Assembly (NCBI RefSeq): GCF_003334355.1
Contig: NZ_QOWP01000037.1
From: Escherichia coli
GTDB taxonomy: Bacteria > Pseudomonadota > Gammaproteobacteria > Enterobacterales > Enterobacteriaceae
Length of the DNA stretch: 31,776 bases
Direction: 5' to 3' (one strand)
The position numbers were made by a program, and so were the translations under genes. Below are positions 1-27,808 of this stretch, piece after piece. Under the pieces are notes generated by a model. The model had not been told where the DNA came from and made no database searches. It worked only from the letters and a program-made list of their open reading frames with translations. How positions within the stretch are numbered: the first letter of the stretch is position 1; each line of letters starts with the position of its first letter.

Positions 1-221
1 TGCACCTACCCGTTTTATTACATAACTGAAGAAAGCATTGCATTCCGGGAGCGTCCATATATGTTACCTCGCGCCCGTACCCGATAGCCGAAAGGAATAA
101 GATGAGGGAACCGCGCCAGCGGCGATTTACCGCCGGGAGCCCGGGTTGCCAGGGTGGTGGCGATTGAGCCACCCTGGCACGTTCACCGGCTTGAGCGTTC
201 CATAGTAGCGAGGAACATCAA

Positions 222-443
222 GTGAACGGAACAGCCTTCGATCTTACATATTCAGAATATAATAGTGCCGCCGCTCGCGATGCTGATGGGATCTATCGCG
301 TCATGTATGTCGCAAAATTTGAAGAAGCGGTTTACGTATTGCATTGTTTTCAAAAGAAAACACAGACTACCAGTCAATCGAATATTGATTTAGCCAAACG
401 ACGCTATAAAGAACTTGTTCAGGAGCGGAAAAATGAAAATTGA
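222..443 (+). pseudogene. N-terminally truncated RelE/ParE-superfamily (HigB-like) toxin remnant
   Basis: 73-aa ORF with a GTG start at 222. The C-terminal part (GIYRVMYVAKFEEAVYVLHCFQKKTQTTSQSNIDLAKRRYKEL) resembles the conserved core of RelE/HigB-type toxins. An in-frame TGA at 192-194 prevents any longer N-terminus, so about 30-40 residues expected for this family are missing. Overlaps the downstream antitoxin start by 11 nt. Confidence 0.4.
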
Positions 444-723
444 AACCTTTGATAGTGTGTGGGATGCGGTGAGTGACACCCCTGAACAAGCGGAAAATAT
501 GCGGATCCGTGCCGAGCTTGTAACGATCATTAATAACTGGATTGAACAACAAGGGTTTAGCCAGGCTCAGGCAGCTTCTGCTTTAGGGGTCACTCAACCT
601 CGCATATCTGAACTTGCCAGAGGTAAGATCCAGATCTTTAGTATCGATAAATTGATCACCATGATGGCTCATGCAGGATTGCATATTCAACGTATTGAAA
701 TTCAATATCCACATGCTGCTTAG
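433..723 (+). CDS. XRE-family helix-turn-helix antitoxin (HigA-like)
   Basis: Track ORF 415..723; the likely start is the ATG at 433 (MKIETF...). The motif QAQAASALGVTQPRISELARGK is a typical XRE HTH. Toxin-upstream, antitoxin-downstream order with start/stop overlap is the HigBA-type arrangement. Confidence 0.6.
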   Translation: MKIETFDSVWDAVSDTPEQAENMRIRAELVTIINNWIEQQGFSQAQAASALGVTQPRISELARGKIQIFSIDKLITMMAHAGLHIQRIEIQYPHAA

Positions 724-775
724 TGCTATAAATACAGATGGCGACAAATTGACGCCGCCATCTGCATAACTTGTC

Positions 776-2629
776 CTACATCTTCTCCAGCAACTTCTTC
801 ACATCTTTGCCATTGCGGGAATCTTTATTCCGCTCGGCCCAGTCATTCAGGCGACGTTTCGCTTCGTCCTGTAGATGTTTGCGCAGCAGCTGGTCCACTT
901 GCAGGCTGTAATTGAGTTGCTGCCAGTTGCCATAAACCCGCAGCGGTACTGGCGTTTCTTTGAGGAAATCAATCAGTTTGCTTTCTCCGTTCCAGCCACC
1001 CACGACCCGAATATCAAACTGAGTGTCGCAGGTTTGCTCCGCCAGATTCAACGTACCAGCCCCGGAAAGCGCCAGCATGGGCGATTGACCTTGCATGTCG
1101 TTTAACGTCACGACGCCATCCTTCAACATCAAATCGGTGGTAAAGCGGTCAAGACGCGTCACGTTATCAAAGTTTTCAGCGGCCTTCACATCACCACCAT
1201 TACGCTCTACCGCTTGCTGAATCATCTGCTGGAAGTTCATCCCTTCCATGCGTGTATCCGTCATTTCGACATGTGCCTGTCCTTGCCAGTTGTGGCGGAA
1301 TGCGTCGGCATCTATGTCAGCACCGGAGAAATCACCAGCCAGTGACATCTTTCCAGTCAACGAAATCGGATAGTTAAACGCCTTCAGAATGGTGCCAATC
1401 TCAACGTTTTCCAGCCGTGGCTGGAAGTTTATCCGCGGATTTATTGATGTCGCGTCCAGCATGCCCGGCAGTGAAACCTGTCCACCGTTAAGTTTGCCCT
1501 GCAGTTGAGTAATTTCCAGCAGACCCGACTTGTTGGTCATTTGCGTGGCAACATCTGTAAAATTCATTCCGCGCCAGCGCACGTTACTGGCCTGCAACAA
1601 AATATCAGCCGTAAAGCCTTGCAGTCCCTGATAGGCCGGTTCATCAATACGCGAAGAAATGACCGGGCGCGGCAACGTTGATTGGCTCTGCCCCTGCTGC
1701 GCGGCACCGTTTTCACCGTTCGCTGTTTCATTAAGCGGGATGAGGTTGTCAAGATTCAGTTGCGGAAATTGCAGTCTCAGCTGCCATTCCGGTTGCTCTG
1801 TCAGCGTGACCTGTGCTTGCCCGCTCAGCGTACTGTCATTGGCGGTCAAACTAATTTGGTTAAATGAAAGGCGTTTATGTGACTCCTGCCACTGGGCCTG
1901 GAAACTCCCCTGCCCCTGAATACCTTGTTTTGGTAAATCTGCACCCTGCAACTGCCAGTTAACTTGTTCAATAGCCGCCGTTAAATCATGCGGATAATCA
2001 GAAGCATCTACCGTACCGTTAAGGGATATCGTGAGATCGCGCTGATCGCGATTAACCCGCCCGGAGAACTCAAATGAACCACGATGTTGGGGATCTTGTT
2101 CCATTTGCAGGCGAATATTGCGGATTGTCACCTGCTCGTCATCTTCATGCTGGAACACCAGCACGCTGTCCGCCACCTTAAGACTGGATATATCAAACGA
2201 CCATCCGCGATCGTCTGACAGATCCGGCAAGGTATTGTCGCGTGGTGCAACCGGGGCATCTTCACTGCGTACTGCTTCCGTCTGCGGCGTCAGTTGGATC
2301 ACTGCCCCTTTTAGCATCACCTGCTTAACGCTCAGTTGATGACTCAGCAGTGGTAAAAGCGCCACGTCCAGACGCATGTTGTCTGCGCGAACCAGTGGCT
2401 GGCTCGCGCCCTGGGCAGTGAGAGACATTCGCCCGGAGAGGATACTAAGCTGCGGCCAGACGTGCCAACGCAGTGGCCCGTCGAGCTGCAATTGATAACC
2501 GCTACGTGCAGCAACTTGCTTGACCATATAGTCGCGGAAATCATTCGGATTCACCAGCAACACTAACGCAGATAACCCGGCCACCAGCACGACCAGGAGT
2601 ATCATCAGCGTCGTCAGAAATCGTCTCAT
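776..2629 (-). CDS. asmA: AsmA, outer-membrane assembly / AsmA-family protein
   Basis: 617-aa ORF with an N-terminal signal-anchor (MRRFLTTLMILLVVLVAGLSALVLL); length and sequence match my recollection of E. coli AsmA; sits upstream of dcd-udk in the conserved order. Confidence 0.9.
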   Translation of the reverse strand: MRRFLTTLMILLVVLVAGLSALVLLVNPNDFRDYMVKQVAARSGYQLQLDGPLRWHVWPQLSILSGRMSLTAQGASQPLVRADNMRLDVALLPLLSHQLSVKQVMLKGAVIQLTPQTEAVRSEDAPVAPRDNTLPDLSDDRGWSFDISSLKVADSVLVFQHEDDEQVTIRNIRLQMEQDPQHRGSFEFSGRVNRDQRDLTISLNGTVDASDYPHDLTAAIEQVNWQLQGADLPKQGIQGQGSFQAQWQESHKRLSFNQISLTANDSTLSGQAQVTLTEQPEWQLRLQFPQLNLDNLIPLNETANGENGAAQQGQSQSTLPRPVISSRIDEPAYQGLQGFTADILLQASNVRWRGMNFTDVATQMTNKSGLLEITQLQGKLNGGQVSLPGMLDATSINPRINFQPRLENVEIGTILKAFNYPISLTGKMSLAGDFSGADIDADAFRHNWQGQAHVEMTDTRMEGMNFQQMIQQAVERNGGDVKAAENFDNVTRLDRFTTDLMLKDGVVTLNDMQGQSPMLALSGAGTLNLAEQTCDTQFDIRVVGGWNGESKLIDFLKETPVPLRVYGNWQQLNYSLQVDQLLRKHLQDEAKRRLNDWAERNKDSRNGKDVKKLLEKM

Positions 2630-3323: not shown

Positions 3324-3965
3324 TTATTCAAAGAACTGACTTATTTTCGCTTTCAATATATCGATCGCAATGCGGTTTTTCCCGCCGCGCGGCACGATAA
3401 TGTCCGCATATTGTTTAGAAGGCTCAATGAATTGCAGGAACATCGGACGCACGGTTTTTTGATATTGCGCCATCACTGAATCCATTGAACGCCCACGCTC
3501 GTTAACGTCACGCTTGATGCGGCGCATCAGGCAGATATCCAGCGGGGTATCAACGAAAATTGAGAAGTTAAGTTCGTCACGCAAACGCGCATCCGTCAGC
3601 AGCAAAATGCCTTCGAGAATGATGACCTTCTTCGGCTCAACCGTCACCGTTTCTTTCATACGCGTATGTTCAACATAGCTGTAAACCGGCAGGTCAATTG
3701 CCGAGCCGCGTTTCAACGCTTGTAAATGCTCAAGCAGCAGGCTGTGATCCATCGCGCTGGGATGGTCGTAGTTGGTCTTAACGCGTTCTTCCATCGACAG
3801 ATGGCTTTGATCTTTGTAATAGCAGTCTTCGGGAATTACGCCGATGTGTTCATCACCGACTTGCTCACGTAATTCACGATAAAGGGTACTGGCAATAAGA
3901 CTCTTGCCGGAAGCCGATGCGCCAGCGATACCGATAATGACGCACTGATGAGACTGATCAGTCAT
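3324..3965 (-). CDS. udk: uridine/cytidine kinase
   Basis: Track ORF 3324..4028 is over-extended. The start at 3965 gives 213 aa ([22 protein letters not shown]...) with a P-loop GxxxxGKS. Confidence 0.9.
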
Positions 3966-27714: not shown

Positions 27715-27721
27715 CCGTTTC

Positions 27722-27808
27722 GCTGAAAAACATAACCCATAAAATGCTAGCTGTACCAGGAACCACCTCCTTAGCCTGTGTAATCTCCCTTACACGGGCT
27801 TATTTTTT
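27722..27808 (+). ncRNA. cyaR: CyaR (RyeE) Hfq-dependent sRNA
   Basis: gctgaaaaacataacccataaaatgctagctgtaccaggaaccacctcctta...cttacacgggcttatttttt matches the CyaR sequence as I recall it, including the terminal hairpin plus U-tract. Confidence 0.85.

Follow-up and report, generated by a model that had tools for sequence, protein, structure and literature searches.

The first 780 nucleotides of the window, by which we mean the whole 31,776-nt stretch of Escherichia coli DNA that was analysed, probably hold the relic of a toxin-antitoxin (TA) system: a toxin pseudogene followed by a promoterless orphan antitoxin gene, which would have arisen at a junction with a toxin-less allele and is fused to a TRIP1/RRS-family repeat that is split by an insertion sequence (IS). 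We put the probability of this reading at about 85%. Positions 1-780 were 100% identical to the yegH-asmA spacer of strain ARL09/232, and the window is E. coli chromosomal DNA. Judged by alignment, this segment represents a recombinant, or "hybrid", allele of the yegH-asmA spacer. On the right the locus is anchored by asmA (776-2629, minus strand), as defined by its ORF and annotation. Between the convergent stop codons of the antitoxin gene and asmA there is a 12-nt inverted repeat (732-767, not assigned to a strand), also found in the intact allele; it arrived with the TA cassette and may form a shared transcript-end hairpin, though it has no T-run. Promoter and terminator scans of window positions 1-900, with terminators sought on either strand, gave no sites, PADLOC reported nothing significant, and a literature search combining yegH, asmA and toxin-antitoxin found no paper.

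Alignment of annotated genomes revealed that this spacer is filled in two alternative ways in E. coli, the hybrid being a third state. In state A, exemplified by DA33133, the yegH stop codon is followed by 74 nt with two inverted repeats, a gene for a 112-aa toxin, a gene for a 96-aa antitoxin and asmA; the TA promoter directly abuts the yegH stop. In state B, exemplified by K-12 and O169:H41, there is no TA system; a GC-rich structured segment comes after the yegH stop, and a REP element lies between it and asmA. In state C, that of the window, state-B DNA runs to ...GTGCCGCCGC (nt 274) and state-A DNA then begins at TCGCGATGCTG, which is toxin codon 58. The DNA to the left of nt 274 had no similarity to the intact allele and was 97-99% identical to the toxin-less allele; from nt 274 onwards the identity to the intact allele was 99.4%. 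The last 43 nt before the join (232-274, plus strand) are a unique flank of the toxin-less allele and have the same context in K-12 and O169:H41, where they are followed by GAACG and the REP element instead of the toxin. Microhomology at the junction was limited to one nucleotide, C274, which is common to both parental sequences; a CTGATG patch 9 nt downstream also occurs in both. Alignment against intact homologous TA loci, the approach that the initial annotation had proposed for locating the lesion, therefore placed it at the 274/275 junction.

Among 5426 complete E. coli genomes, the 5' end of the intact toxin gene was found in 793, the state-B repeat segment without a TA system in approximately 4200, and the hybrid junction in 114 (junction-only query) or 117 (longer query). 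The genomes with the hybrid junction included 042 and ABU 83972, the latter of phylogroup B2, and the hybrid allele was spread over several lineages, among them that of EAEC 042, at 98.4-100% identity. A search for an ancestor, carried out with a chimeric query, showed that none of the 5426 complete genomes has the 5' end of the intact toxin gene within approximately 700 nt of the repeat segment. Since no genome carried both and the boundaries were defined to the base, the fillings exclude one another, and the window allele is a composite of the two.

The history that we propose is reconstructed from extant alleles only. It would start from two allele classes, one with the repeat and a REP element and the other with a complete toxin-first type II TA operon. 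The most likely event would be homology-facilitated illegitimate recombination between these classes, anchored in asmA, in which toxin-less DNA up to nt 274 was joined illegitimately to toxin codon 58. The join would have removed the REP element, the TA promoter with its candidate operator, and the part of the toxin that forms b1, a1, a2 and b2. Later, in some lineages including that of the window, an IS of the IS1111 group entered the hairpin-2 loop of the repeat. The remaining gene pair would be a neutral relic that is drifting.

A simple deletion in an ancestral arrangement of yegH, repeat, complete TA operon and asmA, rather than recombination between alleles, is possible though doubtful. 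A single deletion is mechanistically the simplest event, and REP elements and structured repeats are prone to deletion. However, the combination of repeat and toxin 5' end that such an ancestor would have contained was absent from every complete genome searched, the TA promoter lies directly against the yegH stop in the intact allele, and a second, precise deletion of the repeat would be required in all 793 intact-allele genomes. Recombination between the two allele classes is therefore preferred.

The antitoxin gene (433-723, plus strand) was intact; it encodes a 96-aa protein of the XRE helix-turn-helix (HTH) type, starts with ATG at 433 and is preceded by an AGGAG ribosome-binding site at 420-424. 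The protein matched Pfam HTH_37 (E 4.9e-22), was identical to that of the intact allele (WP_000687871.1) and was annotated by PGAP as an intact helix-turn-helix protein. Its ORF overlaps the toxin stop by 11 nt, which is the arrangement of a toxin-first module with an overlapping XRE-HTH antitoxin; the initial annotation had likewise described it as full-length and overlapping. The antitoxin ORF was intact and free of indels in 11/11 sampled hybrid loci, which encoded three protein variants. Variable sites in these loci comprised 5 nonsynonymous and 6-7 synonymous changes, a dN/dS of approximately 0.2 that could reflect purifying selection on the antitoxin. In the IMT16316/MS6198/N4220121 lineage the changes were 4 nonsynonymous to 1 synonymous, approximately the neutral ratio. 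Because divergence was only 1-2% and four of the five nonsynonymous changes fell in one lineage, selection cannot be concluded from either the open frame or the ratio. The earlier description of toxin inactivation with antitoxin retention was accurate as a description, but selection for that retention does not follow from these data.

It is accordingly unlikely, in our estimation, that the orphan antitoxin has been kept by selection, either as an anti-addiction factor against plasmid-borne homologous Gp49 toxins or as a stand-alone XRE transcription factor. In its favour are the open frame in hybrid loci of diverse lineages, the overall dN/dS, and the fact that closely related pairs occur in Salmonella, on DNA resembling conjugative plasmids and with a 79%-identical toxin, and in two E. 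coli plasmid records. Furthermore, E. coli has many orphan antitoxins, and a function in anti-addiction or regulation has been suggested for them (PMC10790755). Against it, the promoter and candidate operator have been deleted and no promoter-like site was found in 1-900, a 291-nt ORF would be expected to stay open by chance at the divergence observed, one lineage has a near-neutral ratio, and many of the synonymous differences may predate the truncation. In a drifting relic, the antitoxin would lack a promoter of its own and depend entirely on a weak promoter or on transcription running through from yegH or the IS, and it would have no cognate toxin left to neutralise.

The toxin of the intact allele provided the standard against which the window ORF was read. 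The 112-aa protein matched Pfam Gp49 (PF05973) with an E value of 1e-29 over residues 13-102, covering model positions 1-90. Full-length homologues are approximately 110 aa long, almost all of the best 120 of 7083 being 108-116 aa, and a length of approximately 73 aa, which the initial annotation had considered as a possible natural size, is therefore not natural for this toxin. An AlphaFold (AF2) model of the intact toxin, built with 26 homologues in the alignment (pLDDT 85.6), had the predicted secondary structure b1 4-7, a1 11-16, a2 20-34, b2 52-58, b3 64-71, b4 75-84 and a3 91-111. When the PDB was searched by fold, the best matches were HigB1 of Mycobacterium tuberculosis (7nbu, TM 0.66), HigB of Streptococcus pneumoniae (6af4), HigB2 of Vibrio cholerae (5ja8), ParE2 and RelE; a sequence search of the PDB gave only a weak match to a HigB C-terminus (E 0.01), and the fold search was required. 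The RelE/HigB microbial RNase fold, in which a b-sheet packs against N-terminal helices, was recovered for the model of the intact allele only. The promoter region of the intact allele (L002) is covered by inverted repeats at 3764-3779/3781-3796 and 3797-3806/3807-3816, and the interval 3764-3816 is a candidate operator and promoter. These repeats were absent from the window, which thus lacks the features of an autoregulated promoter. Other lesions have disabled this toxin elsewhere in E. coli: there was an 82-aa nonsense form on 326 contigs, a frameshifted form, a form with an 8-aa deletion, and strain G5, in which both genes are frameshifted. These are independent events. A literature search found no experimental test of any member of the E. 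coli yegH-asmA TA locus.

Within the window the toxin pseudogene (275-443, plus strand) was delimited by alignment, PGAP and Pfam; it consists of codons 58-112 and the stop codon of the 112-aa Gp49/HigB-like toxin. The features originally reported were all present: a 73-codon ORF (222-443) with a GTG start (222-224), and an in-frame TGA at 192-194 that leaves at most 82 codons open. In most other genomes with the hybrid allele this TGA is replaced by TAA. The last 56 codons of the ORF are the C-terminal half of the Gp49 (PF05973) HigB-like toxin, and the first 17, including the GTG, are state-B DNA. The ORF matched Pfam Gp49 with an E value of 5.7e-17, at model positions 46-90 of 90 only, and so falls short of the complete domain of approximately 90 residues in a protein of approximately 110 aa. 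In agreement with this result, PGAP annotated 276-443 in ARL09/232 as a "type II toxin-antitoxin system RelE/ParE family toxin", incomplete and missing its N-terminus. Against NCBIfam, the 73-aa ORF matched no family, and the matches of the intact proteins were weak and below the cutoff. In terms of the predicted structure of the intact protein, the fragment keeps b3, b4 and the C-terminal helix a3, and b1, a1, a2 and b2 are gone.

The proposed truncation and the kinship to RelE/ParE/HigB toxins were thereby confirmed. The upstream TGA, on the other hand, is not the lesion, since everything to the left of the 274/275 junction is unrelated DNA of the toxin-less allele that was joined to codon 58; for the same reason, the 17-codon start of the ORF is chance read-through into the repeat. 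On sequence comparison, the toxin gene is a pseudogene fragment and the 73-aa ORF its chance extension into repeat DNA. When the remnant was compared across the 11 hybrid loci and one intact allele, there were four variable sites, all nonsynonymous, and family-invariant residues were hit (R65H, and D93N in the window itself). A GAGG motif precedes the GTG by 8 nt and a lone TATAAT lies at 258-263, although no -35/-10 pair passed the promoter scan; given these two motifs, a fusion peptide may be expressed from the 73-aa ORF at a low level. We would expect the fragment to be unable to fold or to be toxic. That the ORF encodes a functional small protein, acting as a mini-toxin or titrating the antitoxin as a decoy, is very improbable: the GAGG and the retention of b3-b4 and the C-terminal helix would suit such a role, but the product is without b1, a1, a2 and b2 of a four-stranded sheet, carries substitutions at invariant positions, is called a pseudogene by PGAP, and owes its GTG and GAGG to a repeat that conserves both in genomes where no toxin exists.

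The strong hairpin upstream of the ORF (147-179, plus strand) has arms at 147-157 and 169-179 that are complementary at 11/11 positions around an 11-nt loop. A perfect 11-bp inverted repeat within 60 nt would be expected approximately 0.01 times by chance in 800 nt, by our own estimate. Beside it lies the CCGG palindrome ccgggagcccgg (133-144, plus strand; 5+2+5). Both elements had been noted before, although the perfect repeat is 11 bp rather than 10 bp in length. They had also been suggested to be a terminator or the former operator of the TA system, and neither suggestion was upheld, since the stem at 147-179 is followed by CGTTCACCGG and no T-run, both elements are also found in K-12, which has no TA system at yegH-asmA, and both are parts of a TRIP1/RRS-family repeat. 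Decay of the toxin in situ, by a point mutation or frameshift that closed its ORF, with the hairpin and palindrome as the old operator or a TA terminator, is hardly credible: it would account for the in-frame stop codon (192-194) and for the presence of a strong hairpin 43 nt ahead of the GTG, but the DNA to the left of 274 is that of the toxin-less allele, the hairpin occurs in K-12 and in other genera without this TA system, and the inverted repeats of the intact allele are different ones.

The hairpin-bearing segment was identified, by its similarity and its predicted pairing, as a diverged TRIP1/RRS-family structured repeat. The window holds the 3' two-thirds of this repeat (61-231, plus strand, 171 nt); the 5' third is on the far side of the IS, before the window begins. 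When one genome per species was scanned for GCCAGGGTGG-N9-13-CCACCCTGGC, at least 120 loci were found. The matches listed were mostly several copies per genome in Enterobacter, Lelliottia, Phytobacter, Silvania and Pseudescherichia, with a loop sequence common to all, and the hairpin is conserved across enterobacterial genera. These matches were copies of an element of approximately 255 nt, and the copy in strain 042 (L004 2330-2582) was 80-87% identical to the multi-copy elements of Enterobacter, Lelliottia and others. The full-length 042 copy also had 85-86% identity to K-12 TRIP1a and TRIP1c over positions 12-196 (185 nt). Within E. coli, the repeat segment at this locus was present in approximately 80% of genomes; the K-12 copy, at 2,139,5xx, is partial and 5'-truncated.

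An alignment of 54 copies yielded 12 helices, in which 99.1% of cells were paired compared to 34-41% in slid controls, and 13 pairs were changed on both sides compared to 5.9 in shuffles (0/500). The strong hairpin of the window is helix 11. It is invariant in the 54-copy alignment because the search pattern selected for it (an ascertainment effect); TRIP1a/c of K-12 carry GCAGGGGGCGGC/GCCGCCCCCTGC at the homologous place, and the stem is therefore kept with a different sequence. Positions 133-136 of the palindrome (CCGG) are the 3' strand of the long closing helix: the corresponding columns 159-162 pair with columns 5-8 in 54/54 copies, and the 5' partner lies upstream of the IS. Helix 12 (180-228, plus strand) is formed by CGTTCAC (180-186) and GTGAACG (222-228), columns 207-213 pairing with 250-256 in the 54 copies, and the 3' strand of this helix begins with the GTG that is read as the "start codon" of the 73-aa ORF. 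A 33-codon ATG ORF within the repeat (102-203) was rejected as a gene, as its start was not conserved in other copies. A MITE origin was considered for a 170-nt difference between K-12 and 042 and was also rejected; the difference is better read as a deletion of the 5' part of the repeat in K-12, between TACCC(A/G)AT direct repeats.

The TRIP1 repeats of Rudd (1999) are catalogued in PMC10888264 as TRIP1a (aqpZ-lysO), b (putP), c (dusC), d (alx) and e (copA). They have also been studied as "Replication Risk Sequences" (RRS-lysO and RRS-dusC), in which a G4-forming stretch blocks polymerases and provokes post-replication gaps (PMC10592627). The position of this G4 stretch is homologous to the window hairpin, and the RRS-lysO/dusC segment forms a hairpin there (GTGCAGGGGGCGGCGGCGATTGGCCGCCCCCTGCGC). 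An Rfam search of window positions 1-900 at E<=1 gave nothing. The only Rfam family matched was TwoAYGGAY (RF01731), with 31.5, 30.6 and 30.9 bits for three uninterrupted E. coli copies, all below the gathering score of 43; Enterobacter copies gave no Rfam match at E<=0.01 in a 49-kb search.

Positions 1-60 of the window (plus strand) are the right (3') non-coding end of an IS110-family, IS1111-group IS of approximately 1385 bp, as determined from filled sites (L001, L005) and an empty site (L004, E. coli 042). The IS has non-coding regions of 88 nt (5') and 273 nt (3') and subterminal inverted repeats ATGGACGCTCC/GGAGCGTCCAT, of which GGAGCGTCCAT is at 49-59. Its transposase gene lies upstream of the window; its DEDD transposase is taken from the annotation, "IS110 family RNA-guided transposase". 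The long 3' non-coding region and the subterminal inverted repeats place the element in the IS1111 group, and it has a single sequence-specific insertion point, as IS110/IS1111 elements do. The target has the dinucleotide AT (61-62) as its core, situated in the hairpin-2 loop of the repeat. The IS was found in 178 genomes, and the insertion point was the same in four contexts (yegH|asmA, lysO|yohP, yohP|dusC and dusC|aqpZ), namely the AT core within the A(G/A)GGAT loop of hairpin 2 in TRIP1-family copies. A non-coding region of the IS, upstream of the window, holds GAGGTAACA, a 9-mer that exactly matches the right flank of the target on the bottom strand; it is a putative guide, as expected for a seekRNA (PMC11187229). 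The element also lies at the inversion end-points in IAI39-type genomes. The IS was considered as the creator of the toxin junction and rejected: it was present in 6/11 hybrid loci and absent from 5/11, and since the junction was identical with and without it, the IS did not make the truncation.

The TA part of these results is a further case of TA erosion on the chromosome, in which PGAP had already marked the toxin gene as a pseudogene; such an outcome is ordinary (PMC10790755), although the lesion is here traced to one junction between the alternative alleles of a spacer. More useful are the by-products, namely a diverged TRIP1/RRS-like copy at yegH-asmA that is missing from both cataloguing papers, and an IS1111-group element specific to the hairpin loop of TRIP1/RRS repeats. 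Both bear on work on RNA-guided IS targeting and on RRS function. A broader proposal, which we regard as quite improbable, is that the yegH-asmA segment is a sixth TRIP1/RRS locus that still functions either as a structured RNA or as an element of replication risk or topology, that all examined copies of the family are natural loop-specific IS1111 targets, and that the orphan antitoxin is kept as an anti-addiction factor. Amplification between insH7 and insH8 (2,102,912-2,288,976) was the only way in which double RRS-deletion mutants were recovered (PMC10592627), and the yegH-asmA repeat copy lies inside this interval. If the proposal were true, the dosage of this copy could be what compensates in the amplified mutants.

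Compared to known systems, the repeat is closest to TRIP1/RRS, with which it shares the same helices, two hairpins with A(Y/G)GGAY loops and a GC-rich hairpin, as well as a GC-rich, intergenic nature. It differs in that the exact G4 motif GGGGGTGCAGGGGGCGGCGG is absent, GGGTTGCCAGGGTGGTGG being found at the homologous place in the window. The yegH-asmA copy is also not among the five catalogued TRIP1 types, is included in neither PMC10888264 nor PMC10592627, and is 5'-truncated in K-12 and split by the IS in the window. It resembles TwoAYGGAY in having two adjacent hairpins with ATGGAT and AGGGAT loops inside a closing helix, but its sub-threshold scores mean that it is not a member of that family by the standard of Rfam. 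The IS resembles the IS1111-group elements that are guided by a seekRNA or bridge RNA (ISEc11, ISPa11 and ISKpn4; PMC11187229) in its 3' non-coding region, its subterminal inverted repeats and its exact insertion point in a repeated, foldable target. Unlike ISEc11, which targets GTGAAAATACTG, it targets the hairpin-2 loop of TRIP1/RRS-family repeats.

For the gene pair, the comparison systems are the GP49-domain HigBA modules, including HigBA of Acinetobacter baumannii, HigB1/TAC of M. tuberculosis and HigB2-HigA2 of V. cholerae; GP49-domain toxins are classed as HigB-family toxins in toxin-first modules (PMC5906591). The intact allele is like these modules in having a full PF05973 domain, a HigB/RelE-like predicted fold, the toxin gene first, an overlapping XRE-HTH antitoxin gene and inverted repeats at the promoter, although its toxin has at most 20% sequence identity to any solved HigB. 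In contrast, the window pair keeps only Pfam positions 46-90 and is without the promoter and candidate operator, and it would therefore be unable to work as a TA module. Its nearest counterparts are the chromosomal orphan antitoxins of E. coli that lie beside toxin pseudogenes (PMC10790755), which likewise combine an intact antitoxin with an inactivated toxin in particular lineages. Unlike those cases, the lesion described here is defined to the base, it is a junction with an alternative allele of the same spacer, and the native promoter has been lost.

The yegH-asmA spacer of approximately 80% of E. coli was found to hold a diverged structured repeat of the TRIP1/RRS family. Part of this repeat lies in the window (61-231), a full copy is located in the insertion-free locus of strain 042 (L004 2330-2582), and the K-12 MG1655 copy lies at about 2,139,500-2,139,700. 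The yegH-asmA copy is absent from the TRIP1a-e set (PMC10888264) and from the two Replication Risk Sequences of PMC10592627. In MG1655 it falls within the insH7-insH8 interval (2,102,912-2,288,976); all double-RRS deletion mutants that survived had amplified this interval (PMC10592627).

At its 5' end the spacer repeat of 042 (L004 2259-2428) and O169:H41 contained 170 nt that were missing from K-12 (L003). TACCC(A/G)AT direct repeats lie at the borders of this block, which suggests that it was lost from the K-12 lineage by deletion between these short repeats.

The IS1111-group element that ends in the window (1-62; L001 4674-6060 in the ARL09/232 locus) was also identified at three further loci (L139, L140 and L141). 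It encodes a 341-aa transposase (WP_000868863.1) and was found in 178 of the 5426 genomes. The element inserts at a single exact point within the A(G/A)GGAT loop of hairpin 2 of TRIP1/RRS-family repeats; an AT core flanks the insertion, and the 3' non-coding region of the element carries a 9-mer that matches the target flank. In IAI39 and CUVET19-1396, copies in TRIP1a and TRIP1c coincided with the end-points of the lysO/aqpZ-yohP/dusC inversion, an inversion credited to the repeats alone by the TRIP1 paper (PMC10888264).

Other E. coli showed independent inactivations of the spacer toxin (proteins P0045, P0038 and P0015; strain G5 locus, L129). A nonsense form of 82 aa, with the stop after LHCF, was present on 326 contigs; further lesions comprised a frameshift form and an 8-aa in-frame deletion, and in one genome, G5, toxin and antitoxin were both frameshifted. 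An 80-90% identical variant of the toxin promoter and 5' region was found in 59 genomes. In Salmonella enterica subsp. diarizonae (L126-L128) a 79%-identical toxin is paired with a 98-aa HTH_37 protein, flanked by an exclusion-protein gene and TraX/TraW-like genes, with a second Gp49-HTH pair nearby. This gene neighbourhood indicates that outside this E. coli locus the toxin family is plasmid- or ICE-borne.

Elsewhere, the window carries three tandem copies of the Sib RNA, a type I antitoxin (13556-14360), at a position where K-12 has two, sibA and sibB; CyaR is located at 27720-27805. Upstream of the window, in the 100% matching genome of ARL09/232, the annotation lists two genes of the colanic-acid export operon, wzc and wza, as pseudogenes interrupted by internal stops (L001 1-2256).

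Genomes of Enterobacter, Lelliottia, Phytobacter, Silvania and Pseudescherichia contained multiple copies of the TRIP1/RRS-family element, which is approximately 255 nt long (loci L007-L124). In E. cloacae it is nested in a larger unit, about 470 nt long, with REP-like hairpins, CCCTCTCCC...GGGAGAGGG, at the unit ends. An RNA or single-strand DNA function is suggested for the element, because covariation and G-U pairs among 54 aligned copies (alignment A2) favour structure on the strand shown. It is similar to the Rfam family TwoAYGGAY, but scored below threshold.
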